From an uncultured Spirochaetia bacterium (lineage in GTDB: Bacteria > Spirochaetota > Spirochaetia > JABEVK01): a stretch of 64,000 nt of DNA. Both the position numbers and the translations under genes were made by a program. This document shows, one piece after another, positions 1,470-48,709 of this stretch. The notes under the pieces are model-generated. The model did no database searches, was not told the DNA's origin, and saw nothing but the letters and a program-made list of their open reading frames with translations. How positions within the stretch are numbered: the first letter of the stretch is position 1; every line of letters starts with the position of its first letter. The stretch lies in contig CALGPJ010000009.1 in NCBI GenBank assembly GCA_937960645.1, positions 68,522-132,521 of the forward strand, in the 5' to 3' direction.

Positions 1470-1980
1470 GGATAACCTCCTGCTTCAGGCGAGTAGCGAG
1501 GCTTTGCCTCGCCCGATGGATCCGAACCTTGACGTTTCCTTCCGTGATGTGGAGCGTTTCGGCAATTTCTGCATAGTTGAAATTGAAATATTCTTTGAGA
1601 ACCAGGGGGACACGAAGATTGAAGGGCAGGCTCATAAGAGCCTCCTGAACAAGGCCGGCCTCCACCGACCGCAAAAAACGCGTGTCGGAAGACTCGGTGG
1701 TGTAGTTTGATTGATCTTGAAAAATGTTTTGGTGAATGGCGCTTTCTCGTTTCCGACGTTTATCATAATTTAACGCAAGATTTCGAGCCACCCGCAGGAG
1801 CCAGTAACGAGCCGTCTCGTCGTGCGGAAGCTGCTGGATACGCTCATAGTACTTGATCATGGCCTCCTGAACAATTTCCTCGGCAAGATCTTCCCGACCC
1901 GTAATCCGAAAGACGACCCTCATCAGAAGGATGTAATTTTCATCATACACCCTTCGAAAGATCTGCTGAAGGTCCTTCAT
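1462..1980 (-). CDS. RNA polymerase ECF-type sigma-70 family sigma factor
   Basis: 172 aa; region-2-like LLMRVVFRITGREDLAEEIVQEAMIKYY and region-4 HTH YAEIAETLHITEGNVKVRIHRARQSL. Confidence 0.8.
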   Translation of the reverse strand: MKDLQQIFRRVYDENYILLMRVVFRITGREDLAEEIVQEAMIKYYERIQQLPHDETARYWLLRVARNLALNYDKRRKRESAIHQNIFQDQSNYTTESSDTRFLRSVEAGLVQEALMSLPFNLRVPLVLKEYFNFNYAEIAETLHITEGNVKVRIHRARQSLATRLKQEVIHG

Positions 1981-2010
1981 CTCAGTCTAAACCATGAATT
2001 GGCCATGGGG

Positions 2011-3432: not shown

Positions 3433-3447
3433 CCTACCTCCGAAATC

Positions 3448-7229: not shown

Positions 7230-8234
7230 CTAACAGTTTTGTGACGGGATCTCGGAGTAGAGGACACTCTGATTTCGGCCGTTTTTCTTGGCGGTATACA
7301 GGGCCTTGTCCGCCCGGGCAATGACCCTGTCGTCGTCCTCGTCCAGGGTAAATTCGGTGATGCCGATGCTGATCGTCACCACGAAGGGATTCCCATCCAG
7401 GGTCTTGAACACGATCTTGGAGAGAGTTTCGCGAAACTTTTCCGCGGGAACCTGGGCCTTCTTCTCGTCGGCCTCGGGAATCACCGCGACGATCTCCTCC
7501 CCGCCGTATCGCGCCACGATGTCTCGATCTCGGAAGATCTGCCTGGATGTCAGGATTTCACCGATGCGTTTGAGGACCTGGTCGCCCACAAGGTGGCCAT
7601 GGGTGTCGTTGATCTGTTTGAAGTGGTCAATGTCCATCATCAAACAGGCAAAGGTGGGTGTCGTCGACGCTGCTCCAGGAGAAGCTCCGTCCACTTTTTG
7701 GTAAAACTCCCGGGCACGCTTCTTTTCCTGGGCCAGAATTTCGAAAAAGGCTCGTCGATTGAAAAGACCCGTGAGGTAGTCGGTGCTGCTCAGCAGGCTG
7801 AGCTCCTTGTTAAGTTTCTCGATCTCCTCTTTTTGGTTGGCGAGGATTTGAGAGTCGATGATGTTTTGAAAACTGTCCGCGATATAAGAATTGAGACGGC
7901 TCTCGCATTCGAATTCGCGGTAAAGAATCCGCAGAATCACGAGAAGGTGAGAAAACCAGATCTTGAACGAGGGGGAGTGAGCGTCCTTGGGGGTGCCTTC
8001 AAGGACCAAAAGCCCGGACGGCAGTTTCTTTCGGCTGGTACTGGATTTAAGAATTAAGAAACGAGACAGAAGAAAGGGTTCATCTTTGTAAGTATCGAAC
8101 GAGCTGTCCATGATGAGCCGAACGATCTGGTTGTCCGTCTGATCGACTTTGGGGACGAGTTCGTACCCCGCTCCCTCCAGATGGGAACGCAGCCAGTAGA
8201 GTTTCTGATCGATGAAAACAGCGTCTTTTGTCAT
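7230..8234 (-). CDS. Diguanylate cyclase (GGDEF domain, GGEEI variant) with N-terminal sensor region
   Basis: FACLMMDIDHFKQINDTHGH ... RYGGEEIVAVIP ... ADKALYTAKKNGRN are typical GGDEF hallmarks. Confidence 0.8.
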   Translation of the reverse strand: MTKDAVFIDQKLYWLRSHLEGAGYELVPKVDQTDNQIVRLIMDSSFDTYKDEPFLLSRFLILKSSTSRKKLPSGLLVLEGTPKDAHSPSFKIWFSHLLVILRILYREFECESRLNSYIADSFQNIIDSQILANQKEEIEKLNKELSLLSSTDYLTGLFNRRAFFEILAQEKKRAREFYQKVDGASPGAASTTPTFACLMMDIDHFKQINDTHGHLVGDQVLKRIGEILTSRQIFRDRDIVARYGGEEIVAVIPEADEKKAQVPAEKFRETLSKIVFKTLDGNPFVVTISIGITEFTLDEDDDRVIARADKALYTAKKNGRNQSVLYSEIPSQNC

Positions 8235-30557: not shown

Positions 30558-32738
30558 CTAACGGGTAGACGCCGGGTTTTCGGTCGGTAAAACGAAGCCC
30601 GACAATTCCTGCTCGAGCTGCTTTCCCTGAGCCTTGAGATTTTCCGACATTTGCACCAGTTGACGGGCGATGCCCTTGGTGGCATCCGATCCCTGAGCGA
30701 GATGCACGATGTTTCGGCTCATTTCCTTGGCCCCATTGGACTGCTCGTTCACAGCGTTCTGGATGATGTCGAAGCTGTTGCGCAGGTTTTCGCTGAAATG
30801 CAGGAGCTCATGGAAGACCTTTCCCACCTCGTCGATGGCTGCGGCGATACCCATCACCGCAGTACTGACCGCTCCAATCTTTTCCCGGATGGATTGGATG
30901 GCAGCCTGCGAAGCTTGCCCGAGTTCCCCGATCTTTTCCGCGTCCCTGGTTCCTTTCTCGGTGATGCCGACGCCCTCCATCACCCCGTTACGCAGCTCTT
31001 CCAGAATATCCTGGATGTTGAGCACGGCTGCCTTGCTGTCGTCTGCCAGCTTTCTGATTTCCTCGGCGACTACCGAAAACCCCTTCCCGGCCTCCCCAGC
31101 GTGGGCGGCCTCGATGGCGGCATTCATGGCGAGAAGCCCCGTGTTGTCGGCAATCTGTTTGACCGTTGCCAGGATCTCGTCGATTTTCAGGGCCTGACGA
31201 CTGACCCCGCCCATGGTCTCGAAGGTCAAACTCATCTTTTCGGCGAGCTGGTTGGCCGTCTCCACGGATTGGGACAGGGTTGCCGCTCCCTCGGATGCCA
31301 CCTTTTCGGTAATCTCGGCCTGACCGATCACCTGCCGGGATTGTTCGGTGAGTTGGTTGATTTTGACGCCGATCTCCCGGATCTCCTGATTTTGTTTCAG
31401 GGTCATTTGGTACTGTTCGATCACCTTGTTCTCGACATGGTCGAGGGTCCGGGTGAACTCTTCCATGGTGCTGGAGATTTGCTCGAGGGAGCTGGCGTTT
31501 TCCAGGGTTTGGTTTCCCAGCATGCTGCCGGTGTCGTAGGTCTCGTTCGCGGATTTTTTGAGATCTTCTCCGATTCGCAGCAATTGGGCGATGATCCTAC
31601 CCAGGTTGAGGATGGTCTTGTTGGTGATCTCCGCCAGAAGGCCCAGTTCATCCCGGCTCAGGACGGGGATGACCAACGCCAGGTTTTTGGCCTCCATACG
31701 GCCAAAACCTTCATACACGGCGTTGAGCTGTTTGCGAAGGTTGCTCGCGACAATGATATTCAAAAGGATTGCCAGGGTGATCAAGACCAGGGCTGTCGCG
31801 AACATCAGGATCAGTGTTCGCACTCGGGCCGCGACTCGATCTTGAATGTCCTTAAAAACGGAGACTCCGGTTTCAAGGGCCAGATCGATGAGGGCGCCTG
31901 CCGACATCTCGATTCGTTTTCGGAATGTTTCGGTGGGTAAGTCATCGGGATTGTAGAGCACTTCGATCAATTCCAGAATAGAAGACTCGCGCTCCTGCCA
32001 AAATCGAGGCAAGCGCTCGGCATCGTGTCCAGGGTCCAGAATAGCCTCATGAATGGCATAATTCTCGAGCTGGCTTCGGATTTTGTTGTAGTACTCAGTG
32101 AACCAAAGACTAAAACTGTAGATTTCTCGATACAAGCCCGAATCGATGACGCCCGATCCCGTGTCCTCATTCAACACGAGGATGGCCAGGGACTCCAGCT
32201 TGGAAAGCACGTCCGGGATGAGACCCGAGTAGATTTGCAGCAAACTGTTGGTATGGGCTTCGGTATCTCTGCTAAACCCCGAGTTGACCGCCATTCGATG
32301 TTGAATTTCTTGCAAGGATAGAAATGCCTCGGTGTATGCCTGTCTCAGTTCGGAAACCGAATTGAAATTTTTGGAAATCGATAGCACGCGAGCCTCGAGT
32401 GTCTCCTTTCCAGAACCCTGGCCATCCTCTCCCAGGAGCCTCGAGAGGTTTCCTGCCTCTATTACCTCAAGACCTCGACGGAGTTTTTCGACAAGATCTG
32501 GGGACAAGGGACGCAATAAGCCGGAATTGGGGCGGCCAAGGGCGCTGTCCAGCACCGACTTCCGCAACCGATAAAGGGGGGAATAGAGTTCCAATCCGTC
32601 GAGCTCCCTCCTTGAATTATTCAAGTACTGTAGAGACTCCCCCAGCCAGAAAACCAGAAGCAGGCCCAGGGGGACCAGAAACCCCAGGGACGACAGGAAG
32701 AGTTTGAGCCGGATGCTGAAAATCCTGCGATGGGCCAT
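30558..32738 (-). CDS. Methyl-accepting chemotaxis protein (periplasmic sensor, HAMP, MCP signalling domain)
   Basis: Two TM segments; signalling domain motifs [34 protein letters not shown]. Confidence 0.85.
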
Positions 32739-33883: not shown

Positions 33884-35890
33884 TCAGGGGAAGTCTCGAG
33901 GGGGCTCGCGGGCCGAAAGTTCGCTTTCCAGTCGCAGTTTTCGTTTTCGCACCTCCTCGAGGGCACCGGCCTCACGAAAATCCTCCCATAGGAGCCAACC
34001 TCCGCCCAGGACCCCGGCCCCGCCCAGGATGCCTGCTGTCCAGGAGAGGGTGCTGTAGAGCGTGAGGGGCAGCCTCAGTTCTGCCACGGATTCGTTCTCG
34101 GTCGATTGGTACACCTGGTAGAGCTGGTTTCCGGAATAAATACTCCAGGCCATGATGCCTAGAAGGAGGGCGCCCGACCCGAGTCCCACACCTCCCTGCC
34201 AAAACCGGGATTCCTGTACGGAATCAGCCTTTTCCCTGAGTGTCAACTCGGCAAGGGCGGTTCGCAGTGTTTCTTCTTCGAGCTGTCGCGATCGGCGGCG
34301 GCTTTCAAGCTCCTGTACGATCTCCGGGGACAGGGCCTTCCTGATTTCCTCGAAATTTGCCAACCAGGGAGATCGTATCCAGTAGCCCCGGTCGAGATAG
34401 CGCACCAGGGATTCCTCGTGCCGGCTGGCCACCGTGACCGGCGCCGGCGGTTCAACGGAAATTGCCGAGATCGCCGCAAGCCCATCGTCCTCGATTTCTT
34501 CTACAGGGGGCGGTGCCGGAAGAGGTAATGAAACCACGGCTGCCTCCAGGCGAGGAGGACGGCTCACCAGCCGGCGCTCGCCCGGTACAAAGGGACCGAA
34601 AACTTCCTGGCTCTCTCGTTCCCATTGAATCAAGAAGGGCCCCGGATGGGCTCCTACATCGATGACCAGCGGTGTCATTCCCAGGAAAACGCCGTTGTGG
34701 TAAACACGGCCGGGAAGGGGCTCGCTTACGAGAACAAACCACGATACCGGGGATTCCGAGCTGGGAGAGGGTGCTTCCTGTTGACGACTCAAAGAGCGCA
34801 GGGCCGCCACGAAGGAATCATCCCCATTCCGAACCAGTATCTCTTCCTGCGCGGCGGCCTTTTCCGGCCGAGGCAACAGGACGCGATGCAAAAACACCAG
34901 ACGGCGTCTGGCTTCCTGAGAACCGGGGCCATCGGGATCCAGAAGGAGAAGCTGTTCCAGGCTCGCCTCGGCCGCAGCATATTCGCCGGACTGCTCGGCA
35001 ATCTCTGCCAGAACCCGAAGGGCGCTCACCTTGTCTTCTAAGGAGGCCGAACCGGCCAGGGTCTGTTGCGCCAGCTCTCGGGCCTTATCGAACTCCAACC
35101 GACGGACGTGTTCGCGCGCCCGTGCCGCTACGCTCCCCTCTACAGGCCTTTGGCGTAGAAGCAGAAAACGCCGAGCTGCCCCCCGCAGGCGGCTGCCCAC
35201 CGTGGCTTCTTCGGTGCCGGGATTTTCCCGTTCCAGCTTTTCCAGCAACGAAATCGCTTCCTGAAGGCGGCCCTGCATCAGCACACAAAAGGCCAGATGC
35301 AGTTCAAGGGGTGGGCGCAGGTAGGGGTCTTCCTCGATTTGCAGCAACTCGCGATAAATCAGCTCAGCATCTCGAAAACGCCTCAGCCGTTCCCTCAGGT
35401 AGGCTTCCTCCAAACGTCGCTGGCTCGCCGATGACTGTTCGACCCGGAGGGGGGCTTTTCCTAAAAGATTTCGCGCCGCATTGACGACCACGAGGGCAAA
35501 GGTGTTTTTGGGACCTGACTCTGGTTCGTTTTTTGTGTTTTGCAGCATCTTTTCCAAACGCGCCTCGACATAGAGCTGATCGGCGGAAGCATGGTTTTCG
35601 GCAAAACGCTCCAAAAGCAGGTCCATTCTTCCCAACATGAAAAGGTTTTGGTCGGAAACAGTCTCCAGCCGCACCGCTCGCAACGAGGTATTCACCTCCC
35701 CTTCCCGAAGCTCACGGAGCTCGGTGTTGAGCCAGACGGTGCTCGCCAGAAGTCCGGTAACGAGCACCAGGTACAGCGGAGCACGTCCAAGACTACGAAT
35801 CCTCGCCACGTAGGTCCTCTGCGTAGGAGGAACCCTCTTTGGCCTTGGCGAGCTTTTTGATCTGGGCCGCGGCCTGGACGAGTTGGCCAT
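33884..35890 (-). CDS. Membrane protein with TPR-like repeats and a PEGA-like domain
   Basis: N-terminal TM, helical repeat region, PEGA-like VYHNGVFLGMTPLVIDVGAHPGPFLIQWE, C-terminal TM segments. The first ATG overlaps the upstream gene by ~98 nt; an alternative GTG at 35812 with an AGAGGA SD is plausible. Confidence 0.5.
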   Translation of the reverse strand: MANSSRPRPRSKSSPRPKRVPPTQRTYVARIRSLGRAPLYLVLVTGLLASTVWLNTELRELREGEVNTSLRAVRLETVSDQNLFMLGRMDLLLERFAENHASADQLYVEARLEKMLQNTKNEPESGPKNTFALVVVNAARNLLGKAPLRVEQSSASQRRLEEAYLRERLRRFRDAELIYRELLQIEEDPYLRPPLELHLAFCVLMQGRLQEAISLLEKLERENPGTEEATVGSRLRGAARRFLLLRQRPVEGSVAARAREHVRRLEFDKARELAQQTLAGSASLEDKVSALRVLAEIAEQSGEYAAAEASLEQLLLLDPDGPGSQEARRRLVFLHRVLLPRPEKAAAQEEILVRNGDDSFVAALRSLSRQQEAPSPSSESPVSWFVLVSEPLPGRVYHNGVFLGMTPLVIDVGAHPGPFLIQWERESQEVFGPFVPGERRLVSRPPRLEAAVVSLPLPAPPPVEEIEDDGLAAISAISVEPPAPVTVASRHEESLVRYLDRGYWIRSPWLANFEEIRKALSPEIVQELESRRRSRQLEEETLRTALAELTLREKADSVQESRFWQGGVGLGSGALLLGIMAWSIYSGNQLYQVYQSTENESVAELRLPLTLYSTLSWTAGILGGAGVLGGGWLLWEDFREAGALEEVRKRKLRLESELSAREPPRDFP

Positions 35891-37103
35891 GGTGGGTGTA
35901 GGGGCGCCAACGGTTACTCACCACCGCCACCGAAATCGTCATCAGGGGAAAACGGGCCGGGGTTCCTTGACGGGTCACACTTTCAATATACCCGACTTTG
36001 GCGTCGTGCGGGGAATAAAACCGGGATATTTGTGAATCGAACTTTTGAATGAAGAGTTCGACATATTCCTTCCATCGCGAATAATCGATAACCACTACAT
36101 AATCGTCCCCGCCTTCGTGCCCGAGGAAGATCGAATGATCCCGGATCTCCTCTTTCGCCTGCATCAGGCAGTCCCGCACGAAGAGGATCACCTCGTCCCC
36201 TTTGGCAAAACCGTACTTGTCGTTGTAAGCCTTGAAATGGTCCAGGTCCATGTACAAGACAGCAAAGATCTGTCCGGCAGTCAATCTCGAGTCGATCTCC
36301 TGGACGATCCTTCGGTTGCCGGGCAGCCCCGAAAGAGGATTGGCTCCTCGGGCCTCGTCGTGCATTCGTGCGATCGCCGCCCCCATTTCGTTGAAGGACT
36401 GGGCCAACTCTCCGATTTCGTCGTTTTGATGGATACGTACACGGACCTCCAGATTACCCGCCTGGATGGTTCGGGTTGCCTGCACCAGGAAGCCCAGGGG
36501 CCGAAAGATCTTGACGAACAAATACAGCGCGAAACCACCGTTGACCAGGATTACCAGGATGATGACGAGGACCACCTGACGGTAGAGGCGGTTCATCCAC
36601 TCGCCGATATCCTCCATTTCCAGCTGAAACCGAAGTACCCCGAAGCTCACCGTGGTCAGCGGAAAACTCAGAAAAACCCGCAGGGCGCGCTCCTCCAGTT
36701 TTTGCACGATGGCCTTGCCCTCGAAGGCGCGGCGGGTCAGAACCTCGTTGATTTCCTGGAACTCGGCCTCTGTGGCCCACCCTCCCGGCTGCCCAGACAA
36801 CGCATCCAACAGGACCTCCCCGTTTTCGGAAAAAAGTCGGTAATTGGCCAGGTTCTGTTCCCGCAATTTCTGACGAAGGACCTCCAGATTGTTTGCCCAA
36901 TTGGGATATTCATCGAGGACACCCTGAAGAGAGGTAAGAATCTGGCGCGATTTGTCCTGGGTTTTCAGCACGGCATTTTGAACGATGAGGTCGGTCTGGT
37001 TTTCAAAAATCAGCACGACGAACACGGCGATCAGCGCGAGTGTCATCGCGATGTACATCAGACCGGTGCGAAACGCCAGACTGTTCAACAGTGTTCGGAT
37101 CAC
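35793..37103 (-). CDS. HAMP-GGDEF domain membrane protein (non-canonical GGDDY motif)
   Basis: N-terminal TM, HAMP, then LYMDLDHFKAYNDKYGFAKGDEVIL...FLGHEGGDDYVVVI. Confidence 0.75.
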   Translation of the reverse strand: MIRTLLNSLAFRTGLMYIAMTLALIAVFVVLIFENQTDLIVQNAVLKTQDKSRQILTSLQGVLDEYPNWANNLEVLRQKLREQNLANYRLFSENGEVLLDALSGQPGGWATEAEFQEINEVLTRRAFEGKAIVQKLEERALRVFLSFPLTTVSFGVLRFQLEMEDIGEWMNRLYRQVVLVIILVILVNGGFALYLFVKIFRPLGFLVQATRTIQAGNLEVRVRIHQNDEIGELAQSFNEMGAAIARMHDEARGANPLSGLPGNRRIVQEIDSRLTAGQIFAVLYMDLDHFKAYNDKYGFAKGDEVILFVRDCLMQAKEEIRDHSIFLGHEGGDDYVVVIDYSRWKEYVELFIQKFDSQISRFYSPHDAKVGYIESVTRQGTPARFPLMTISVAVVSNRWRPYTHHGQLVQAAAQIKKLAKAKEGSSYAEDLRGEDS

Positions 37104-37106
37104 GCC

Positions 37107-38114
37107 TTACCTCTCGAGGGGCTGGCCGAGTTGTTCCAGAAGATAATCCAGAAGGGGCTGAAAGGCTTCCTCGTATCGATGAAAATCGGCCAGGGTCACA
37201 TGGCCCATGCCACTCTGCCAGAAAACCCGATTGTTGGGAAATCCCCGGGCGACCAGGGGCAGGTTGTGGCGGAAATCCACCACCTGATCCTGCCAATCCT
37301 GGTGGAGCAGGACGGGGATATCGGGCCGGGGCTTAAAATCAAGACGGGATTCCCAACGGCCCAGGGCCAGAACCCAGGATACCGGAACGTTGTAGATGCC
37401 AACGAGGGGGTCAGGACTTACCAGGGGCTGCAGGCTCCTGAGCCACCACTGGTTCCACCAGGCCAGCCCCTGCCCCACCTCCCAGTACACGTGGCGGATC
37501 AGCGGTGCGCTCAAAATCAGATAGTCCCAGGGAAGTTCCCGGGTGCGGGACATTTCGATCACCGCGGAGGCACCGGTCGAATGCCCCAGCACGACCCAGG
37601 GTCGGGGCAGCAACGCGGATATTTCCTTTAGAGCCTCCAGCCAGGCGTTCAGGGCCTGGGTGTAATCCGAAAACTCGCCGATTCCGGCCCTCTCCCCGCT
37701 CGAAAGGCCGTGGCCAGGAAGGTCGAGGGCCGTGACCGACCACCCCTCGGCCAGCATCACCCGGATGATTCCGGAAAAGTTCCCCAGGCTGGCCAGGTAA
37801 CCATGCAAGACGAACAAGGTTCCGCGCGATGGTCCCGGGGGCAAAAACACCGCCGAGAACACGTCCCCCAGGGGATATTCGATCAAACGAAAGGCAGCAC
37901 GGTTTTTCCCTCCCCAGGGATGCACCACTTCACGAAATTTCCAGTGGACCACGTACTCTTCCAAAAAGGGTGGCATCGGGGCGTCGAGGTCCCGTATATC
38001 CCAGGCGCCAGTCGCGATTTCCCGCCTCAGCCCCATTCGGAAATCGAGGGTGGGATCGGGGGCGAGGGCACAACCGATCATCAAAAAACCGATGCAACCA
38101 TAAAACGATCGCAT
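37107..38114 (-). CDS. Alpha/beta-hydrolase-fold lipoprotein (lysophospholipase-like)
   Basis: Start ATG at 38114 overlapping upstream stop (ATGA); lipobox LMIGCAL; nucleophile elbow VLGHSTGAS. Confidence 0.65.
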   Translation of the reverse strand: MRSFYGCIGFLMIGCALAPDPTLDFRMGLRREIATGAWDIRDLDAPMPPFLEEYVVHWKFREVVHPWGGKNRAAFRLIEYPLGDVFSAVFLPPGPSRGTLFVLHGYLASLGNFSGIIRVMLAEGWSVTALDLPGHGLSSGERAGIGEFSDYTQALNAWLEALKEISALLPRPWVVLGHSTGASAVIEMSRTRELPWDYLILSAPLIRHVYWEVGQGLAWWNQWWLRSLQPLVSPDPLVGIYNVPVSWVLALGRWESRLDFKPRPDIPVLLHQDWQDQVVDFRHNLPLVARGFPNNRVFWQSGMGHVTLADFHRYEEAFQPLLDYLLEQLGQPLER

Positions 38115-39553
38115 CAGCCCTGGTTCCCCAAGGCGAACTTGTGAAAATCCTCGGCGGGAAGGGGCTTGCTGAAATAGTATCCCTGAAAAACCCGGCATCC
38201 GTTTTCGTAGAGCCATTTGACCTGCTCCCAACGTTCCACTCCCTCGACGATGATGCCCTTTTTCATTTGACGCGCCATCCCGATGATGGCCCGCACCGGT
38301 GCTGCGGAATTGACCTCTCCTGGAAGGTCATCGACGAAGCTCTTGTCGATCTTGATGATGGAGATGGCCAGGGTTCGAAGATAGCTCAAACTGGAATAAC
38401 CGGTACCGAAGTCATCCAGCATGATATGAAAGCCCATCCGCAGGAGGTTTTCGATCTTCTTGGCGCTCTCCGCCACGTTCTGCATGAGGGCACCTTCGGT
38501 GATCTCCAGCTTCACGTTGTGGTGGGGTATTCCGAGACGCTTGCAGAGTCGGATCGTATCGTGAATGATGTCCTCCTGGGTGAACTGGCGGGTGGAAAGG
38601 TTAATGCCCATTTGTAGAGACGAGAGCCCGATTTTCTGCCACTCGCCCAATTCCTGCAGGGACCTTCGTAGAATCCAGGCCCCTAAGGGGACGATCAGCC
38701 CCGTCTCCTCCGCAATCGGAACAAATTTTCCCGGAGAAAGAAAGCCCATACTGGGATGTTTCCAGCGGATGAGGGCTTCGGCTCCTGTGACCCGAAACTT
38801 TCCGGTTTCCGGATCCAGGAGTTCCACCTGGGGTTGGTAGTACATTTGAAACTGGGAATGCTTTAGATCCGAGGCGCTTTGAAGGGCCTGGAGCAAGCCA
38901 TTTTGAATCTCGATGCGCTCCATCTGTTCCATGCGAAGGCTGGGAGTGAATGTAAACACCGACACCTGTTGGCGAACAGCCACACTGAGCGCGATGTCGG
39001 TGCTTCGCAGAATCTCGGACTTGGTGTCGCCGTCTCTGGGATAGAGGGCCACTCCCAAATTGACTCGGATGGAGATATTGTATCCCCCGAGCACGTGCGA
39101 TTTTTCGGTATCGCGAACCAGCCGCTGAAGGGTCTGGTTGAACGTGGCCGAATCGGAAATATCGAAAAGTACGATCAAAAATTCATCGTCCCGGGTGTGG
39201 TACACCTTGCCGCGATTTTCGATCACTGACTGGATGCGGACTCCGGTCTGGTACAAAATCCATTCGGGTATCTTGCTGGAAAAGGTGCGGCGAACCAGGT
39301 TGAAAATTTCGTTGAGTTTCAGGAAACAAAGCGCTTTAGGCCGGTCATCTCTTTTCAGAATCTCGTGCAGCTGGGTTTGCATCACCACACCGTTCGGCAA
39401 ACCGGAATCGGGGTTGGTGACCAGTTGCTTGGCTAACCGCCGCCGCTCGTTAAGAATGACGTTGTACCTTTCGCGCAAAAGCTTAAATTTCTGCACGAGC
39501 CGTTGGTACTTGACCTGAGTTTCCAGCTTTTCAGACTGGTTCAACAGACCCAA
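38114..39553 (-). CDS. c-di-GMP phosphodiesterase: degenerate GGDEF + intact EAL domain
   Basis: EAL motifs EALIRW, DDFGTGYSSL, KIDKSFV, EGVE. The GGDEF position reads GGYNI (degenerate). Confidence 0.8.
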   Translation of the reverse strand: MGLLNQSEKLETQVKYQRLVQKFKLLRERYNVILNERRRLAKQLVTNPDSGLPNGVVMQTQLHEILKRDDRPKALCFLKLNEIFNLVRRTFSSKIPEWILYQTGVRIQSVIENRGKVYHTRDDEFLIVLFDISDSATFNQTLQRLVRDTEKSHVLGGYNISIRVNLGVALYPRDGDTKSEILRSTDIALSVAVRQQVSVFTFTPSLRMEQMERIEIQNGLLQALQSASDLKHSQFQMYYQPQVELLDPETGKFRVTGAEALIRWKHPSMGFLSPGKFVPIAEETGLIVPLGAWILRRSLQELGEWQKIGLSSLQMGINLSTRQFTQEDIIHDTIRLCKRLGIPHHNVKLEITEGALMQNVAESAKKIENLLRMGFHIMLDDFGTGYSSLSYLRTLAISIIKIDKSFVDDLPGEVNSAAPVRAIIGMARQMKKGIIVEGVERWEQVKWLYENGCRVFQGYYFSKPLPAEDFHKFALGNQG

Positions 39554-40879: not shown

Positions 40880-41947
40880 TTACTGGTTGTTCGGGTTTTG
40901 CTGAGCGGCGTCCTGGGGAGGGAAGTCCTCAATGGTCGCCATCTTGCGCATCTCGAGGGCACGGAGGACTTGCAAGCGGCCAAGGCGGCTCAATTCGAAA
41001 CTGCGGCGGGCAGATTCACGGGCGTTGAGGATGCCCCAGGTCCCCTCATCATCGATGTCTTCACGGAGGTTGAGCACAGCTCGATCGTAGATGATTTTGA
41101 TGTCTTTGAAGTAGCTGATAAAGTCACCGCCCTCGGTTGCGGCATCCCGGTGGATGATCAAACCCTTGAGCCGGATGTAGGGAGCGCTGCGAGGATAGAG
41201 GGGAAGGATGCGCAGTTCACGGTTTCTCACCTCGGTCTGATACTGGGGGTTTCTCCATTGCAGGGTGTTCCAGCCATCCGACTGCAAATACCCGAGGAAG
41301 ATGGTCTGCTGTTGTGCATTCTCGTTCTCCAGCACGATGCTGAGACCGTGGGGGTAGTTACGGCCGAGGTAGTTGACCTGGATGTCTCGGATGACTCCGA
41401 CATTTTTGACGACACCGTAACCGACAAATTGATCACCAGGTTTGCTTTCGGGACCGTTCTGGCCTTGCTGCCGGGGAAGAGTGGCGTAGGCCGGAATGTC
41501 GAAAGGAGGCACGACCATGGCCGAGCTGGGGACCCGGTAGAGCGGGAAATGTACCCGGACGCCCATCACCGTTTGACCACCGTACCTGCTGGCGTCATCC
41601 TTGACAGCGGCTTCCCGGATTTGGGACTGAACGACGTTTTGTATCACACGGGCAGAGCTGGTCAGGCGGACTTCCCAGTTTCGAATTCGGAGGGAGGTCT
41701 TCATGACAGCCTTATCCGCAGCGGTAAAGCTTGTCCCCGCCTGGGTGCTGTAGTCGATCAAAGTCTGACCGTGTTCTTTTCTCATGTCTTCGGGCAAGTT
41801 GTCGCGGCCGGCGATTTCCGTGTCACCTACCAACTGGGAAAAATCGATCAAGGTAGCCAAACCGGTAAAGTCATCGGTTTGCTGGGCGACCAGACTCCCT
41901 GCGGCAAACATCGTCGATAACATAAACAAGGTTGCCAAGCGTTTCAT
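40880..41947 (-). CDS. flaA: Flagellar filament outer-layer (sheath) protein FlaA of periplasmic flagella
   Basis: Sec signal peptide; motifs recalled as FlaA-family hallmarks (GYGVVKNVGVI, FISYFKDIKIIYDRAVL). Strong sigma70 promoter and AAGGAG SD upstream, terminator downstream. Confidence 0.6.
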   Translation of the reverse strand: MKRLATLFMLSTMFAAGSLVAQQTDDFTGLATLIDFSQLVGDTEIAGRDNLPEDMRKEHGQTLIDYSTQAGTSFTAADKAVMKTSLRIRNWEVRLTSSARVIQNVVQSQIREAAVKDDASRYGGQTVMGVRVHFPLYRVPSSAMVVPPFDIPAYATLPRQQGQNGPESKPGDQFVGYGVVKNVGVIRDIQVNYLGRNYPHGLSIVLENENAQQQTIFLGYLQSDGWNTLQWRNPQYQTEVRNRELRILPLYPRSAPYIRLKGLIIHRDAATEGGDFISYFKDIKIIYDRAVLNLREDIDDEGTWGILNARESARRSFELSRLGRLQVLRALEMRKMATIEDFPPQDAAQQNPNNQ

Positions 41948-41988: not shown

Positions 41989-42016
41989 ATTATACGGTAG
42001 GACAAGGGTTTGTCAA
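41989..42016 (-). promoter_or_regulatory. Consensus sigma70 promoter TTGACA-N16-TATAAT for flaA
   Basis: Reverse complement reads cgTTGACAaacccttgtcctaccgTATAATtgg ~45 nt upstream of the flaA ATG. Confidence 0.65.
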
Positions 42017-42051: not shown

Positions 42052-42561
42052 TTATTCATCGACCTGGGTAAACTCGGTATCGTATTCGTGGCCTTCGATG
42101 GTGACAACCACTTCCTTGAGACTCGGGAAATTGTAAAGTACCCCTTTTTTCAGGAGCTCGATCCCTCGATGAAAATCGATGCGTGATTCGTAATCGCGTT
42201 CGAAGGACTTGGCGTTTAAATCGATGTAGACGATACCCTCCGCGACGAAAACCGTCTTGACGCGGGTCTGCAGGGGCAAAATCCGGAAGAGCTTGTTGAG
42301 CGAGGGCCCGAGGAGATACTCGCGGACATACAACGAGACGGCTTGCTCGTCGGAAGACTGGACCGGGAGCGCACGTTCCTCGGCTCCTGTTCCCTCGACG
42401 TAGTGCCGGGGAAAGAAAAAGATCCTCCTCTGCATGCGTCCCGGGTTGAAAAACCAAATCAAAACGGAAAGGAAAAGGATCCCTCCTAACACGAATAGGT
42501 GGATGGTTTGTCGGCTCTTGAGGTTCCTACTCATCGGCGGAACAATACCATCAAAAGCCAC
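42052..42561 (-). CDS. Hypothetical membrane-anchored protein (possible GerMN-like domain), last gene of modification operon
   Basis: N-terminal TM (IHLFVLGGILFLSVLIWFF); SLYVREYLLGP segment; overlaps ATP-grasp gene stop. Confidence 0.4.
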   Translation of the reverse strand: MAFDGIVPPMSRNLKSRQTIHLFVLGGILFLSVLIWFFNPGRMQRRIFFFPRHYVEGTGAEERALPVQSSDEQAVSLYVREYLLGPSLNKLFRILPLQTRVKTVFVAEGIVYIDLNAKSFERDYESRIDFHRGIELLKKGVLYNFPSLKEVVVTIEGHEYDTEFTQVDE

Positions 42562-43981
42562 GCTTCGGCAAGTCCTGAGTCAGACAGTCGAGGCGGTACA
42601 AGGCCCCTGGGATTCCGCCCGCCTCCAGGGCCTCCATGACTTTTTTCCGGAGATTTTTGGGCAATTTGCGCCATAAATCTGGCTCGATTCGCTGGATGTC
42701 CTCGAGTCTGTCCCGCCAGAGGATGCCGTACCAGTCCTGACCATCTCGAAATGCGGGCTGTTGGGGGTTGGAGAGCCAGTCTTCGGTCTGCGGATGGGGT
42801 GCCTGGAGCCTCGGAAACAGGAAGCGTCGATATTCTTTTAACCTCGAACGTGCCGCCTCGAGATCGGTCTGTGCCACGATGACATTCGCCAGTTTTTCCA
42901 CGTTGTTTCTCGGGAAGGTGGTAAGGTCCCCGGTTTTTCGAAGAAAAAAGATCTGTTCCCCCTCCCGCATCACGGGGCCGCCGTTCAAGCCGAACCACCC
43001 CATCAATGTGCCCGGAATACCGATGATGGCCCCCTCCACCACGGAACGTTCGAGAAAATAATTGGGGTTTTTCGGTTCCTGCCCCAGGGCCAGGAGAATG
43101 GCCTCCCGAACCGGGCTCAGCCCCGAAGCCAGGGGAAAGGTCCAGCCGCTCATGAAGCCCCCACTCAGTCGGGCGGCCACCTCTCCCACCACCGGCCGAC
43201 CCTTGTGCCACTTCAGATCCCCCTTGACCGCTCCCCACTCGAGTCCCAGGGCTCGAGCCGAGCTTTCCAGACAGTCCCAAAGCTCATTCTGTACCCTGGA
43301 AGCGGCATGGGTAGGAAAGCTGTGGCCCATTTCCACAAAGTATGGCGGAAAGTGGATGTCCCGATCGGCCAGCCCCCTCCGATAAAACCCCTTGGGGGTG
43401 ATGAGCGCATCCAGGCTGAACTCGGGTCCCTCGATGTAGTCCTCAACGATGGCCCGGCCCTGGCGGCTGTGGGCCAGAGCCCCCTGAACGGCCTGTTCGA
43501 GATCGGAAGCCGTGTCGACCCGCCGCACCCCACGGGCGCCCATGTTGTCCACGGGTTTGACCACGGCGGGAAAGTCGATTCCCCGAAAATCCCGGTGCTC
43601 CGAGTCCAAAACTTTGAACCGGGGAACCGGAATCCCCGCCTGGGCGAGCCTCTGCCGCATCAGGGCCTTGTCCTTCGCCGCCAGGGCCGCCTGGTAGGAG
43701 TGGGACCAAAGCCCGAACTCCTCTGCAATGTGTGCCACCGTGGTGGAAAAATCCGTACCCACCGTGAGCACCCCCCGGTAGGTGCCGCCCCATCGCCGAA
43801 GTGCTGCGACACAGGCAGCCTCGTCGCTAATGTCGCATTCCAGCCAGGAATCGGCCAGACGGCGGGCCACGGAGTTCGGATCGCGGTCCAACCCCAGGGT
43901 AGGGATTCCCATATCCCGAGCTTCCCGGTAGACGGGCTGTTGCATGAGGCCGCTCCCAACCACGATCAGGTGGCCCGTCAT
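42551..43981 (-). CDS. ATP-grasp domain carboxylate-amine ligase with C-terminal extension
   Basis: Start ATG at 43981 (GGAGG SD) overlapping upstream stop. ATP-grasp core DFPAVVKPVDNMGARGV...AIVEDYIEGPEFSLDAL. Confidence 0.75.
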   Translation of the reverse strand: MTGHLIVVGSGLMQQPVYREARDMGIPTLGLDRDPNSVARRLADSWLECDISDEAACVAALRRWGGTYRGVLTVGTDFSTTVAHIAEEFGLWSHSYQAALAAKDKALMRQRLAQAGIPVPRFKVLDSEHRDFRGIDFPAVVKPVDNMGARGVRRVDTASDLEQAVQGALAHSRQGRAIVEDYIEGPEFSLDALITPKGFYRRGLADRDIHFPPYFVEMGHSFPTHAASRVQNELWDCLESSARALGLEWGAVKGDLKWHKGRPVVGEVAARLSGGFMSGWTFPLASGLSPVREAILLALGQEPKNPNYFLERSVVEGAIIGIPGTLMGWFGLNGGPVMREGEQIFFLRKTGDLTTFPRNNVEKLANVIVAQTDLEAARSRLKEYRRFLFPRLQAPHPQTEDWLSNPQQPAFRDGQDWYGILWRDRLEDIQRIEPDLWRKLPKNLRKKVMEALEAGGIPGALYRLDCLTQDLPKRGF

Positions 43982-45687
43982 GGGAGCCTCCGGGCGTAGA
44001 TTTCCATCGTGTCGCCCCACCTGAGCCACCGCTGCAAAGCAGCCAGACCCGCCGTCCACCATCGACCCAGGGGGCGCCCCAAAAGCCGTTCGGGGTGGAT
44101 GCCGGTGGGCTCGATCCACCGAATTTGAAAATCGTGCCGGTCAAGAAGACGGCGCGCCGTGACCGGCTCCCAGAGCGTGTAGTGATCGGTGGGGCTTTCT
44201 CGAAAAAAGCGGCCGGGGTGGAATCGGGCCGTGAGACCCGCGGCGTTGGGGGTGGAGAGGAGCAGCCACCCCTGTGGACGCAGGAGGTAGCGCAGCCCCT
44301 GAAAGAGTGTCTGCAGATCGGGAAAGTGTTCGATCACGTACCAGAGGCTCACCGCATCGAAGCTCCTTTCGGGCCAGTTCTTTTCCCAGCCCACCACCCC
44401 CAGGTTGAGGCAGGTGGCCGGCACGCCCAGCTCCCGCTGGACCCAGGCCACCGCCTGAGGGTTGACATCGGCGCCCTCGACCACCATGCCCTTTTTTTGG
44501 GCGGCGGCCAGAAAGGGGCCGTAAGCACACCCGAGATCCAACAGACGCCGCCCTTGGAGGGGACCGCTCAACCGCTGAAGGACTGTCAGGCGTCGAGCGC
44601 CCAGGGCCTCGATGTTGGGAAAATCCTGCAGGTAAGTTTTGCCGTACTGGCTTCGATATTCGTCCTCGAAGTACTGCGGTCCGTAGTCTTTTTCGGGTAC
44701 CAGCCACGGCAGGAGGTAGAGGAAACCACAGTCCCGGCATCGGTAAAAGGTCCTGTCCTTTTGTCGGTTCACCACCCGAGCTCTGGCGGAACCACAGGCC
44801 GGGCAAAATCGGCCGTGACTGCGGAACCGCCGCCACAGCGCATGCGGCTCCTCGGGTTCCATGGGCTGGTGGTAGAGCTGTGACAGCCCCCTGGGATCTT
44901 GAATTTTTTCGAGGAACCGGACGAGTTTTCGGACAGATACCCCGCGAACTCCCAGCAGGGGCCAGCCTTTTCGCCGGGATAGCCGGGCATGGTACCGGCT
45001 GGGCTCCACCAGGAGAAAGGGCACCCCCTGGTTCCGGCACTCGTGGGCGGTGATGCCGTAGGAGCAGAAAACCAGATCGAAGTGCTGCAAATGATCCCGA
45101 AGCCGCTGGGGCCGGGAAAGCAGCGAGGGGCGGCGGCCGTGCAGCAGGGGAAGGTCCGAGCGGTCCTGCCAGGGCCCCTCGAGCACACTCACCTCCCACG
45201 TTAGGTCGGGTAATCGGTTCAAGCTCTTCAGGAGGCGGACGGCCAAATGGTGGCGGTCGGTTCCCCCGAAGGCCACCAGGACTCTGGTGACAGGCTTCGG
45301 TGTGTAGACCCGGTGGGGCCCCAGGTCCATGAGCCCGGGAGCCTGGCAATTGGGAGGGATTCGGCTGGTATTACCCAGGCTGTCCACCAGGAAGTCCATT
45401 CGGGAACGGCAGGCCGCCCCCTCGTCCCAGCCCACCAGGGGCCAGCCGCGCTCGGCAAAGGCGCGGTACAGGTCCCTTTCCGTTTTCCGTCGGTCGAAGA
45501 CGATCAGGTCCCAGGGCTCCTGAAAGGGGTCGTGGGTCTGCCAGAGCTCCTCGGAGATTTGCTCGGGGCGGCCCTCCGGGGCCCAGAGCCGCCCGCCGAC
45601 GGCACGGGCCGCTTCCCGGCAGCGGTTGAGGTGGCCCCACCCCCCCTCTGGCCGAACCGAGGGCACGAAGAGGATTTTTCTAGCCAC
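43978..45687 (-). CDS. Fusion protein: PseG/SpsG-like UDP-sugar hydrolase (GT-B fold) + Zn-ribbon class I SAM-dependent methyltransferase
   Basis: N-terminal KILFVPSVRPEGGWGHLNRC (PseG-like). C-terminal CPACGS...CRDCGF zinc ribbon followed by methyltransferase motif I LLDLGCAYGPF. Confidence 0.65.
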   Translation of the reverse strand: MARKILFVPSVRPEGGWGHLNRCREAARAVGGRLWAPEGRPEQISEELWQTHDPFQEPWDLIVFDRRKTERDLYRAFAERGWPLVGWDEGAACRSRMDFLVDSLGNTSRIPPNCQAPGLMDLGPHRVYTPKPVTRVLVAFGGTDRHHLAVRLLKSLNRLPDLTWEVSVLEGPWQDRSDLPLLHGRRPSLLSRPQRLRDHLQHFDLVFCSYGITAHECRNQGVPFLLVEPSRYHARLSRRKGWPLLGVRGVSVRKLVRFLEKIQDPRGLSQLYHQPMEPEEPHALWRRFRSHGRFCPACGSARARVVNRQKDRTFYRCRDCGFLYLLPWLVPEKDYGPQYFEDEYRSQYGKTYLQDFPNIEALGARRLTVLQRLSGPLQGRRLLDLGCAYGPFLAAAQKKGMVVEGADVNPQAVAWVQRELGVPATCLNLGVVGWEKNWPERSFDAVSLWYVIEHFPDLQTLFQGLRYLLRPQGWLLLSTPNAAGLTARFHPGRFFRESPTDHYTLWEPVTARRLLDRHDFQIRWIEPTGIHPERLLGRPLGRWWTAGLAALQRWLRWGDTMEIYARRLP

Positions 45688-46345: not shown

Positions 46346-47289
46346 CCCCACTCCCTCCACAGCTGTTTCAAGGCCACGGCGTCCATCCGAAACCGGTAGC
46401 TGAATCCCCTGATCCAGCGCCGAACACTGTGAAAGGTCTTCCAAGCCTTGAAAGGCGAGAGACCGCTGCGAAGCAAAAAGGGGAAAAAAAGTCGGAGCGG
46501 CAGCTCGATATGATCCAGATTGTACTGCGGCACGATGTTTTTGAGATAAAAACGTTCGTAGCCGTTGATGGGGGTGGTATCCTCCAGAGGGGGATCGCTC
46601 AGGTACTGGATGCGGAACCCCTTCAGGCATCGGATGCTCTCCCCCCAGAGGTGGACCCGAAAGCCCCAGTCTGCCTTCTGCCAATAGGCGCTGGCGATCG
46701 AGGGATCGAAGCCCCCCGTTTGCAGGAAGGTGTTCGGTCGGTAAAACCCCGTGAGGTCCATGGGGTAGAGGCTTTCGTGGAGCTCGTTTTGGGAAAAGAT
46801 GTTGATGAATTGCAGCACATTTCCCCTTTTGAGGGGGACGATGAGGTGGGGAATTTCCTCTCCCTTGGGCGATTTCAGCTCCGGGATGTAAACCAGGGCG
46901 GGTTTGTCCCAATCGCCCCGAACGAGTTTTTGAGGCGGAAAAGGTTCCAGTACCTCCATGCTGTCGGTAATGACCAGCATCCACTCGCTCCGAGAGACTC
47001 CCAGGGCCATCTGCATCCAAAGAGGCTCGGTGATGGGTAGCGAGGGAATGAGGAACTTGACGGGGAGATCGTTGGGAAAGGGCTCGCTCGGCACGGAACC
47101 GGGATCGCGCCGCAAAATGACCTCACGGGCCCCATAGGCCACCAGCTTGCGGGCAAGTTCCAGCTGAAAGTACACGGGGCCCCGGGGCAGGATGATGGCC
47201 CCCCAGGACAAGCCCTCGTGGATGGGCAGGGGGTTGAGATTTCCCGTCAGGGTGTAGGATGCATTAAAAGACGAACTGAAAGTACTCAT
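46342..47289 (-). CDS. Hypothetical protein (315 aa) in modification operon; no motif recognised
   Basis: Translationally coupled on both sides; could be the transferase of the system (untested). Confidence 0.4.
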   Translation of the reverse strand: MSTFSSSFNASYTLTGNLNPLPIHEGLSWGAIILPRGPVYFQLELARKLVAYGAREVILRRDPGSVPSEPFPNDLPVKFLIPSLPITEPLWMQMALGVSRSEWMLVITDSMEVLEPFPPQKLVRGDWDKPALVYIPELKSPKGEEIPHLIVPLKRGNVLQFINIFSQNELHESLYPMDLTGFYRPNTFLQTGGFDPSIASAYWQKADWGFRVHLWGESIRCLKGFRIQYLSDPPLEDTTPINGYERFYLKNIVPQYNLDHIELPLRLFFPFLLRSGLSPFKAWKTFHSVRRWIRGFSYRFRMDAVALKQLWREWG

Positions 47290-48709
47290 GACAGGACCGG
47301 CATTCTTCCGGGTAACGTTCTTCCTGATGGGCGAGCATCCACCCCGTACCCCGCTCCCACACAGCCGCGGGATCTTCCTCGAGCAGGTTTCCCCAGTATA
47401 CCTCGCCCTGGGGATATTGATGGCAACTCACCACCCTGCCGTCGGCCAGGCTGTGGAGTCCCCGTTGCAGATGCCAGCAGGGGTGGCGCTTCCAGGGAGA
47501 GAGGTCCACGGTCCGGCGATTCGGCAGCCGTCCGGCCATATCGTTGTAGCCCACCACCAGGGGCTTGTACCCCTCCTCCTTGACCTGGATGTAGAAGTTT
47601 TCCACGTGATCCTCGGTGAGGTCGCACCGCGTGGTCTGGAGATACACCCTGCCCGCAAACATGTCACGCAGCGTTTGAGCCGTTTGACGCATGACCTCGA
47701 AGCCCTCTCCGCGCAGCTGTCGATACAGCTGCGGTTCCCAGGCATCGGCCTCCACGATCCAGGTGATCTTTCCTTTTAGCCGGCCGAGCTCGTTGAGCAC
47801 CTCGGATGTCCATCCCAGCCCGGATGTTTCCACGACCAGCTCGAAGCCCAATTCCAGGGCGGAGCGAAGAGCCGCGACCGCGTGGGGATAGAGGGCAACC
47901 TCCCCCCAGAACCCCGGAAGGAGCACCCCGCCTCCCATCCAGCGGCCCACACGCTCGAGCATTCGGCGTAAATCTTCGAGGGGCAAATCGACCCGCGTCG
48001 TAGAATAAAAGCGCGGGTCCGAGTAGGCGGGGACCTGCGCCACCGCATTGGTCCATTGCATCTTCCAGTACGCCGGCAGGGTGCGCTGGGAAACTCGGTC
48101 CCGCGCGACTTCGGACAGAAACCGATCCAGGGACCATTGGGCCCTCTCCAGGAATCGGCTGATCAACAGCCGGTTGCGTGGGCAATCGTCGAAGAAGGTG
48201 ATCCGCCAGGTGCGCAGATCGATGGGGCTCAATAGAGTTTCAACATCGAAGTGGTTGACGTGGTGGAGAAGGCAGGAGAAAAGTCCCTGCCGATCGGGCA
48301 GTTCCTCCGCTTGCTCCAGGGCAGCGATCCCCTGAAGGGCGAAGGTGCTGACCGCTTCGGGTGCCAGACCCAGGGGATAACAGTCCGCAAAGGTGTAGTC
48401 GGCCTTGTGCTGACGATGGGTCTGCCAGATTTGGCGCGAAAGGTCTTCCCGAAGAAGGGGCGCATCGGCCGGAATCAGCATCAGGTGCTCTTCGTTTCCG
48501 CTGGCCTGCAGCAGGGCTTGCAGCCAACCGCGGCGATCCGACCATTCCGCCGGAATGACGTCCGCCTGCCACCAGGACGGGGGTCTGCCCAACCAGGCGA
48601 CTTTCTTCACGAAATCCCAGGAGGCGACACGGCGGGCTAAATCCCGGGTTTGGGGCAAAACCCCCTCCCCCAGGCTGCCGTCCGGGGTCCAAAAAAGGCA
48701 ACTGACCAT
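47264..48709 (-). CDS. SPASM-domain protein with radical-SAM-like core lacking the CxxxCxxC triad (spiro-SPASM-like)
   Basis: GGGVLLPGFWGEVALYP (GGEPLL-like) and ELVVETSG but no CX3CX2C; C-terminal Cys cluster CWH...SCH...ECRSCHEY (SPASM/twitch-like). Confidence 0.55.
   Translation of the reverse strand: MVSCLFWTPDGSLGEGVLPQTRDLARRVASWDFVKKVAWLGRPPSWWQADVIPAEWSDRRGWLQALLQASGNEEHLMLIPADAPLLREDLSRQIWQTHRQHKADYTFADCYPLGLAPEAVSTFALQGIAALEQAEELPDRQGLFSCLLHHVNHFDVETLLSPIDLRTWRITFFDDCPRNRLLISRFLERAQWSLDRFLSEVARDRVSQRTLPAYWKMQWTNAVAQVPAYSDPRFYSTTRVDLPLEDLRRMLERVGRWMGGGVLLPGFWGEVALYPHAVAALRSALELGFELVVETSGLGWTSEVLNELGRLKGKITWIVEADAWEPQLYRQLRGEGFEVMRQTAQTLRDMFAGRVYLQTTRCDLTEDHVENFYIQVKEEGYKPLVVGYNDMAGRLPNRRTVDLSPWKRHPCWHLQRGLHSLADGRVVSCHQYPQGEVYWGNLLEEDPAAVWERGTGWMLAHQEERYPEECRSCHEYFQFVF

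Follow-up and report, generated by a model that had tools for sequence, protein, structure and literature searches.

The 64,000-nucleotide stretch of DNA analysed here (the window), which belongs to contig CALGPJ010000009.1 of an uncultured Spirochaetia bacterium, encodes a protein of 569 amino acids (aa) in which three modules follow one another in a single chain: a PseG-like domain of the glycosyltransferase B (GT-B) fold, a four-cysteine (Cys4) zinc ribbon, and a class-I S-adenosylmethionine (SAM)-dependent methyltransferase. This architecture is obligate in a family that extends across the spirochetes, and the gene sits in a conserved operon whose last conserved member is flaA, coding for the sheath protein of the periplasmic flagellum. 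The first five genes of this operon are tentatively read as the late and tailoring steps in the synthesis of a pseudaminic-acid-type nonulosonic sugar, activated with cytidine monophosphate (CMP), that would be O-linked to the FlaB core flagellins. We regard this reading as plausible rather than probable.

The fusion gene is an uninterrupted open reading frame (ORF) on the minus strand, running from a GTG start at 45687 to a TGA stop at 43978. The locus has a G+C content of 65%, and several long spurious ORFs therefore overlap it in other frames; the frame considered here is the real gene, as shown by a near-identical database entry, more than 100 homologues, and independent assemblies. That entry, P0001, differs from the window protein at a single position (T163 in the window, K in P0001). 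The full-length homologues share 31-66% identity with the window protein and cover 99% of its length, and a near-identical sister strain shows identical gene calls, with the same overlaps between neighbours, in the ENA ERZ6864144 and Logan ERR9287890 assemblies. In databases, members of the family are named "methyltransferase domain-containing protein" or UbiG/SpsG, and nothing more specific. A database look-up of the exact protein sequence encoded in the window found no record, and the best match among the GTDB species representatives is just 47% identical, so this lineage (about 59% G+C) seems to be under-sampled.

The original prediction, made from the letters of the sequence, had described a PseG/SpsG-like GT-B domain joined in one polypeptide to a CxxC...CxxC ribbon and a SAM methyltransferase. 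This description is borne out, and the motifs are present: ILFVPSVRPEGGWGHLNRC at aa 5-23, CPAC at 295-298, CRDC at 317-320, and LLDLGCAYG, the proposed motif I of the methyltransferase, at 382-390. The two ways in which it could have failed were likewise addressed. No frameshift or split separates the halves in any of 80 related loci or in the two independent assemblies, and the C-terminal half is a true methyltransferase and not a member of another Rossmann family.

The distribution of the family was assessed with one genome per species, the locus comparison being based on the 80 best of at least 590 species-level genomes with a relative. These 80 all belong to Spirochaetota, save for a few evidently mis-binned metagenome-assembled genomes (MAGs), and in all of them both halves lie within one ORF. 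An exhaustive profile search with the N-terminal domain alone retrieved 416 clusters at E<=1e-30. Nearly all of the best 150 have either 560-650 aa or, where a cytidylyltransferase precedes the GT-B domain, 810-855 aa; a small number of shorter entries look like fragments. In the genus Treponema, the triple fusion of cytidylyltransferase, GT-B domain, and methyltransferase is the standard form, and the isolate T. bryantii NK4A124 has it as well; a homologue search seeded with the T. bryantii protein reached MAGs of gut Treponema and no named pathogen. Looking for the fusion in other spirochetes, as had been proposed, thus finds it throughout, and the adjective "unusual" does not hold within the lineage. 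The accompanying statement that PseG is normally a stand-alone enzyme is also too strong, since Treponema fuses a cytidylyltransferase ahead of the same PseG-like domain; HP0326 of Helicobacter pylori is a natural PseF-PseG fusion. What is new is the obligate fusion of two modules that are each of a known kind, the GT-B domain resembling PseG and the zinc-ribbon methyltransferase resembling TcaB9. No functional study of the fusion family, of the operon, or of its spiro-SPASM member was found in the literature searched, and queries for TDE1713-1716, TP0243-0248, and "spiro-SPASM" returned no functional data.

In its AlphaFold model, the N-terminal domain folds into two lobes as a compact GT-B structure of the GT28-like kind, about 280 aa in size. 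The full-length fusion is modelled with a mean predicted local distance difference test score (pLDDT) of 94.4 and a predicted template modelling score (pTM) of 0.91, the latter implying that the halves are packed against each other in a fixed manner. Pfam finds nothing in the first 290 residues. The PseG model of NCBIfam, TIGR03590, gives 18.8-21.5 bits with the window protein, its equivalog cutoff being 153.55, and 26-45 bits with the N-terminal domains of eight relatives, where it is the sole family matched in all eight. PseG is also the top NCBIfam family for 22 of 23 diverse N-terminal domains (best E 7e-12). These matches are colinear, with the N-terminal GxGHxxR stretch falling on profile positions 3-31 in some members and the C-lobe on positions 166-267. 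Foldseek places the domain in the GT1/GT28 group of GT-B folds, with YjiC at 6e-7, MurG at 3.7e-6, and Campylobacter jejuni PseG (3hbn) at 4.5e-5 (template modelling scores 0.55/0.56); in size it is close to PseG (288 versus 274 aa). A search of the PDB with the single sequence of the domain gave no match, and a profile search gave weak matches to GT28/GT1 C-lobes, PseG itself not being found.

Conservation across 70-120 homologues singles out a long set of invariant residues in this domain: G16, G18, H19, R22, D65, D88 (followed by E89, G90, and G91), R94, D102, and N113 in the first part, and F140-G-G-x-D144, G211-x-T213-x-x-E216, P229, Y232, and H233 in the second. When the profile is aligned to C. 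jejuni PseG, whose sequence was checked against chain 3hbm_A, H19, D65, and D88 fall opposite H17, D76, and D100, with a low hhalign probability (15%) and over the N-lobe only. His17, in the N-terminal G-x-G-H-x-x-R loop, is the catalytic histidine of that enzyme. A catalytic histidine at this position is common to GT28 transferases and PseG, and neither this residue nor the fold therefore tells a hydrolase from a GT28 transferase. A canonical PseG orthologue is ruled out by a TIGR03590 score more than 100 bits under the cutoff. Thus, the assignment of this domain as PseG-type stands with regard to fold and motifs and falls with regard to orthology, given the 19-45 bits obtained and the lack of PseB, PseC, PseH, or PseI genes nearby. 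For these same two reasons, the domain is treated below as a putative hydrolase of sugars linked to uridine diphosphate (UDP).

In the second half of the protein, all four ribbon cysteines are invariant or 98% conserved, as anticipated for a CxxC...CxxC ribbon; weak Pfam zinc-ribbon matches cover aa 291-322, and the AlphaFold model predicts a three-stranded beta module. Downstream, Pfam Methyltransf_23 matches aa 369-522 (81.6 bits versus a cutoff of 27, E 7e-23). This match includes motif I (D384-x-G386-C-A-x-G390) which, together with the acidic D407 of beta-2, is invariant or nearly so. The module is further marked by an invariant Tyr-rich lid (Y335, Y339, F340, Y344, Y348, G349, Y352, D355), by the conserved stretches VIEH454F and SPxD501-H502, and by a C-terminal TGHHPER...GDTxExY extension.

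Profile searches of the PDB relate the methyltransferase to UbiG (1e-13), TcaB9 (5.5e-11), and KijD1 (8e-11). With the ribbon and the methyltransferase taken together, the best Foldseek matches are KijD1, MtmC, and TcaB9 (7e-12 to 1e-10, about 300 aligned columns), and the KijD1 profile alignment (profile positions 28-243) begins inside the ribbon. In the alignment with TcaB9, H181 corresponds to H454 of VIEHF, E224-H225 to D501-H502 of SPxDH, and Y222 to the invariant F494. We take His181 and Glu224-His225 to be active-site residues of TcaB9, as indicated by mutant studies. An internal control was provided by the mutant chains of TcaB9 itself: against the family profile, those carrying H181N and H225N score 4.5-5 bits under the wild type, and that carrying Y222F scores higher. 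The fusion ends about 70 residues past the region aligned to TcaB9, whose large C-terminal domain, binding deoxythymidine diphosphate (dTDP), is missing, and no Pfam match was found in it to PF08421 or PF08484, the terminal domains of the TcaB9 type. By sequence and model, the ribbon-methyltransferase half looks like a methyltransferase of nucleotide-sugars in which an acidic residue and a histidine form a conserved pair; the nucleotide, held in TcaB9 by the C-terminal domain, may here be bound by the GT-B domain. KijD1, MtmC, and TcaB9 methylate nucleotide-bound sugars, so the order first suggested, in which UDP would be released and the free sugar then methylated, is not favoured over the reverse.

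The fusion gene belongs to an operon with a near-invariant order on one strand: spiro-SPASM, the GT-A-like unk315, cytidylyltransferase, fusion, ATP-grasp, Amidase_3 (when present), GerMN, and FlaA (Table 1). The gene counts come from a search of the 80 loci with the neighbour proteins of the window and are minimum values, as the contig often stops short of the end of the operon. The genes of the window are translationally coupled: the stop of the cytidylyltransferase gene overlaps the GTG start of the fusion by 8 nucleotides (GTGGCTAG), and the fusion stop overlaps the ATP-grasp start in an ATGA. Upstream of the operon, a divergent xseA is found in 39 of the 80 loci.

Table 1. The fusion gene, its modules, and the other members of the operon in the window (modules are given with the nucleotides that encode them).
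Feature	Position	Strand	Basis
Fusion gene (PseG-like GT-B, Cys4 zinc ribbon, class-I SAM methyltransferase)	43978..45687	-	569-aa ORF; homologues; full-length AlphaFold model; independent assemblies
GT-B domain, aa 1-288	44824..45687	-	AlphaFold model of the domain alone, pLDDT 92.6; Foldseek GT1/GT28 matches; TIGR03590 as sole NCBIfam match; conserved residues
Cys4 zinc ribbon, aa 293-326 (C295, C298, C317, C320)	44710..44811	-	conservation; weak zinc-ribbon Pfam matches; model
SAM methyltransferase module, aa 327-569	43978..44709	-	Methyltransf_23; PDB profiles; Foldseek
spiro-SPASM (TIGR04321)	47264..48709	-	335.9 bits versus cutoff 250; 71/80 loci
unk315, conserved protein of 315 aa	46342..47289	-	77/80 loci; weak GT-A signals
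SpsF-like cytidylyltransferase, 221 aa	45680..46345	-	PF02348, E 6e-22; 78/80 loci
ATP-grasp carboxylate-amine ligase, 476 aa	42551..43981	-	ATP-grasp_4 and ATP-grasp_3; 74/80 loci
Small GerMN (Germane) protein	42052..42534	-	PF10646; called as a gene of 160 aa in the sister strain; 61/80 loci
flaA, periplasmic-flagellum sheath protein, last conserved gene of the cluster	40880..41947	-	PF04620, E 2e-74; directly downstream in at least 61/80 loci
Sigma-70 consensus TTGACA-16-TATAAT	41989..42016	-	12/12 matches; consensus match only

Among the enzymes flanking the fusion, the cytidylyltransferase finds only weak KdsB matches in NCBIfam. The ATP-grasp protein has as its closest solved structure the L-amino acid ligase 3vot (3e-13), and it also resembles Ddl-type ligases. 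unk315 gives scattered signals (Glycos_transf_2, weak, in 3 of 14 members, with a best value of 2.5e-4; NTP_transf_3 in 4 of 14; the nucleotidyltransferase-like structure 5xhw at E 0.02) and carries a conserved GGxD...WQ..D...R...WG motif. From these sequence signals, it probably has a GT-A fold, as a glycosyl- or nucleotidyl-transferase. TIGR04321, encoded upstream of the fusion on the same strand, is a curated spirochete family with no assigned function. Its radical-SAM motif CxxxCxxC ("EGCPQSCxxCPYP") is kept in 46 of 72 homologues and lacking in the window protein: in the latter and its nearest relatives all three motif cysteines are lost, with C411, C429, C470, and C473 of the SPASM region kept (window and loci L001-L006 and L009, compared with L007, L008, L011, and others). 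Loss of the motif is commoner at loci with the triple fusion (11/19 versus 4/41). A frameshift as the origin of the short spiro-SPASM N-terminus was ruled out, the gene being intact by tblastn.

Towards flaA, a gene for an Amidase_3 protein (the N-acetylmuramoyl-L-alanine amidase family) lies between the ATP-grasp and GerMN genes in 56 of 60 informative loci, such as L081 and L083-L085. The window, with no such gene at the junction 42534-42551, is one of four exceptions, and its closest relative, L001, does have it. The GerMN protein of the window shows a hydrophobic N-terminal anchor and no obvious lipobox cysteine. The sigma-70 consensus is a perfect one and lies within the 104 bp that precede flaA, which suggests that flaA can be transcribed apart from the upstream enzymes. 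In some relatives (L084, 18736-21758; L085, 17066-21728), flaA is followed by cheA, cheW/cheR, cheX, and cheY. The flaA-che operon of Borrelia resembles this arrangement. In the window, speE and GGDEF/EAL genes take this place after flaA; genes for the turnover of cyclic di-GMP (HAMP-GGDEF, GGDEF-EAL, GGDEF) are found at 35793-39553 (-), near the flaA cluster, and at 7230-8234 (-), and a gene for a methyl-accepting chemotaxis protein at 30558-32738. Far from the operon, at 1822-4371 (+), an ORF of 849 aa has MurB domains, matched by FAD_binding_4 and MurB_C, only in its last ~270 residues; the first ~570, with no Pfam match, are either an over-extension of the ORF in high-GC DNA or an unusual N-terminal extension.

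The GerMN protein of the window appears to be the positional counterpart of TP0248 of Treponema pallidum, an abundant uncharacterised 15-kDa lipoprotein encoded beside flaA (TP0249) (PMC5015957). A transcription study of 2022 spoke of flaA as the "orphan flagellar gene" of its cluster. In T. denticola, the four ORFs upstream of flaA, TDE1716-1713, are co-transcribed with it; they are no more than putative counterparts of the operon described here, and other Treponema have six such ORFs.

The case for a flagellin sugar starts from the composition of the operon, which holds two domain families specific to ulosonic-acid pathways: the PseG/SpsG-type GT-B domain and PF02348, the family that activates 3-deoxy-D-manno-octulosonic (Kdo), neuraminic (Neu), pseudaminic (Pse), and legionaminic (Leg) acids with CMP. 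In Bacillus subtilis, SpsF and SpsG have been placed by genetics in the CMP-legionaminic acid pathway (PMC7439481). The FlaB flagellins of T. denticola are modified with a nonulosonic acid of the Pse configuration, whose 2-methoxy-4,5,6-trihydroxyhexanoyl group brings in a methyl ether and a non-acetyl amide (PMC13439194; PMC9481697), and its flagellin glycans contribute to the contacts between core and sheath (PMC13439194). Such a glycan needs a methyltransferase and an enzyme forming a non-acetyl amide; both kinds are encoded here beside flaA, and hence the proposed link to flagellin. Nonulosonate synthases are encoded by T. pallidum and T. denticola (bioRxiv 10.1101/2022.03.25.485807), and T. 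denticola has Maf-type flagellin transferases as well, so that transfer to the protein need not fall to the GT-B domain.

Under this reading, the fusion would be a cytoplasmic three-module enzyme, and the hallmark of an operon found across the spirochete phylum. Its GT-B module would bind a UDP-linked derivative of 2,4-diamino-2,4,6-trideoxyhexose and release UDP, as in the PseG/SpsG step, with H19 as the general base. The ribbon-methyltransferase, tightly packed against it, would methylate the same nucleotide-sugar, or its N-acyl substituent, by means of the D501-H502 dyad. The ATP-grasp enzyme would form the amide that attaches the N-acyl group, one other than acetyl, and the cytidylyltransferase would activate the finished nonulosonate. 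A bolder version, speculative enough that we consider it unlikely as a whole, would see in the five cytoplasmic genes upstream of flaA the missing pathway, particular to spirochetes, by which the flagellin nonulosonic-acid glycan is tailored, this glycan keeping the FlaB core and the FlaA sheath together; in the fusion, a PseG-derived GT-B domain would have replaced the nucleotide-binding domain of the TcaB9 type, and the bound UDP-sugar would be methylated and then hydrolysed without being released.

Several observations weigh against a flagellin sugar and limit our confidence in it. The N-terminal domain scores far below the PseG equivalog cutoff, and generic GT1/GT28 transferases (YjiC, SpnG, and MurG) rank above PseG in Foldseek. 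The cytidylyltransferase matches none of the PseF, LegF, and NeuA models. No genes for PseB, PseC, PseH, PseI, neuB, or Maf are present in the 64-kb window, and none for PseB, PseC, PseH, PseI, or Maf in six Pfam-annotated related loci. The peptidoglycan-type Amidase_3 so regularly found in the operon, together with GerMN, points to the cell wall and not to flagellin. Finally, in the window flaA has a perfect sigma-70 consensus of its own, and its linkage may therefore be positional and not functional.

The main rival to the tailoring of a flagellin sugar is that the GT-B module would be a true glycosyltransferase, transferring to an acceptor (glycan, lipid, or protein) the CMP-activated ulosonic acid that the cytidylyltransferase beside it, or fused to it, supplies; the methyltransferase would then cap the product. 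We judge this rather unlikely, though it has real arguments on its side: the Foldseek ranking just mentioned is headed by genuine transferases, the invariant N-lobe residues proper to this family (D88-E89-G90-G91, R94, D102, and N113) would fit a specific acceptor pocket, and the order of domains in the Treponema triple fusion would equal the order of reactions. However, the H. pylori PseF-PseG fusion joins non-consecutive steps of its pathway, and domain order is therefore weak evidence for reaction order. The domain is also as small as PseG, lacking the acceptor-binding elaborations of GT-B transferases of 350-400 aa, and PseG is the sole curated family that its sequence detects. In addition, the operon already has a separate GT-A-like protein, and Maf transferases are present in Treponema.

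A role of the operon in the cell envelope or peptidoglycan, for example in a periplasmic or wall-linked glycoconjugate, is less credible still, and we consider it improbable; the link to flaA would then reflect a shared periplasmic location or co-regulation. The Amidase_3 and GerMN genes between ATP-grasp and flaA speak for it, as do the likeness of the ATP-grasp protein to Ddl-type ligases, the profile matches of the GT-B domain to GT28 enzymes including MurG, and the promoter consensus that flaA has to itself in the window. Against this, the first five genes of the operon encode enzymes of biosynthesis in the cytoplasm, including the two specific to ulosonic-acid pathways. The window operon is complete but for the amidase, which is therefore separable from the rest. 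We know of no peptidoglycan pathway combining a cytidylyltransferase, a methyltransferase, and a SPASM protein.

The literal form of the original prediction, in which a true PseG would free UDP from UDP-2,4-diacetamido-2,4,6-trideoxy-beta-L-altrose and the fused domain would methylate the free sugar, is in our view very unlikely. The GxGHxxR, FGGxD, and GxTxxE motifs, the colinear TIGR03590 matches, and the confident, rigid two-domain AlphaFold model all agree with it. Nevertheless, the equivalog cutoff is missed by more than 100 bits, no pse genes are found in the neighbourhood, and the nearest relatives of the methyltransferase use sugars that are nucleotide-bound and not free. Moreover, the sole methyl group of the T. 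denticola glycan is on the N-acyl chain and not on the sugar ring (PMC13439194). As for an assembly or frameshift artefact merging two genes, it is to all intents ruled out by the same ORF appearing in two independent assemblies and in 80/80 loci of different species, by the 416 clusters, almost all of fusion length, and by a confident single-chain model.

Spirochete motility relies on periplasmic flagella, and no description of the enzymes building the methoxy-acyl substituent of the T. denticola flagellin sugar was found in the literature searched. The chemistries called for by this sugar are represented in the operon beside flaA, which brings together a PseG-like module, a methyltransferase, an amide ligase, and a CMP-activating enzyme. 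Should the link to flagellin be true, candidate genes for knock-out in T. denticola would be at hand, the curated but function-less spiro-SPASM family would gain its first biological role, and a conserved, spirochete-specific target would emerge that affects the motility of the agents of syphilis, periodontitis, and related diseases. Should it fail, the family would still illustrate clearly how a GT-B domain and a methyltransferase can be obligately fused. The interest of the case rests less on the fusion itself than on the phylum-wide, flaA-linked operon, through which the question of where the flagellin glycan of spirochetes comes from can be put to a direct test.

Each part of the fusion has its counterpart among known systems. 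The Rossmann core of the methyltransferase scores best, at 1e-13, with O-methyltransferases of the UbiG type (Methyltransf_23). These enzymes, however, have neither the ribbon nor the Tyr-rich lid nor the C-terminal extension of the fusion, and only a core of about 140 residues aligns. A parallel closer in structure is offered by TcaB9, KijD1, and MtmC, the C3-methyltransferases of nucleoside diphosphate-hexoses, where an N-terminal Cys4 zinc module also precedes a class-I SAM fold. Contrary to TcaB9, the fusion family has an invariant F494 in the position of Tyr222, and a short conserved TGHHPER...GDTFEVY tail takes the place of the large dTDP-binding C-terminal domain.

PseG (TIGR03590; C. 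jejuni Cj1312, PDB 3HBM/3HBN) and SpsG of B. subtilis are UDP-sugar hydrolases of nonulosonic acid pathways. With them the N-terminal half shares a compact GT-B fold of about 280 aa, the G-x-G-H-x-x-R loop with the histidine equivalent to His17 of PseG, the "IID" and "FDD" acidic positions, FGGxD, and the GxTxxE of the C-lobe. Unlike PseG and SpsG, the spirochete domain has the additional invariant residues E89-G90-G91, R94, D102, N113, and Y232-H233, is always fused to the ribbon-methyltransferase, and is not clustered with PseB, PseC, PseH, or PseI. As in spsF-spsG, its gene lies beside that of a cytidylyltransferase, in the same order. The remaining parallel is HP0326 of H. pylori, from the neuA/flmD cluster cited in PMC9481697. 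It has no methyltransferase or zinc ribbon. Both of its halves are Pse enzymes of the canonical kind; for the corresponding spirochete halves, in contrast, none of the PseF and PseG equivalog models gives a match. Nevertheless, HP0326 places a cytidylyltransferase N-terminal to a PseG-type domain, just as the Treponema triple fusions of 810-855 aa do, and it does so in the context of flagellin glycosylation.

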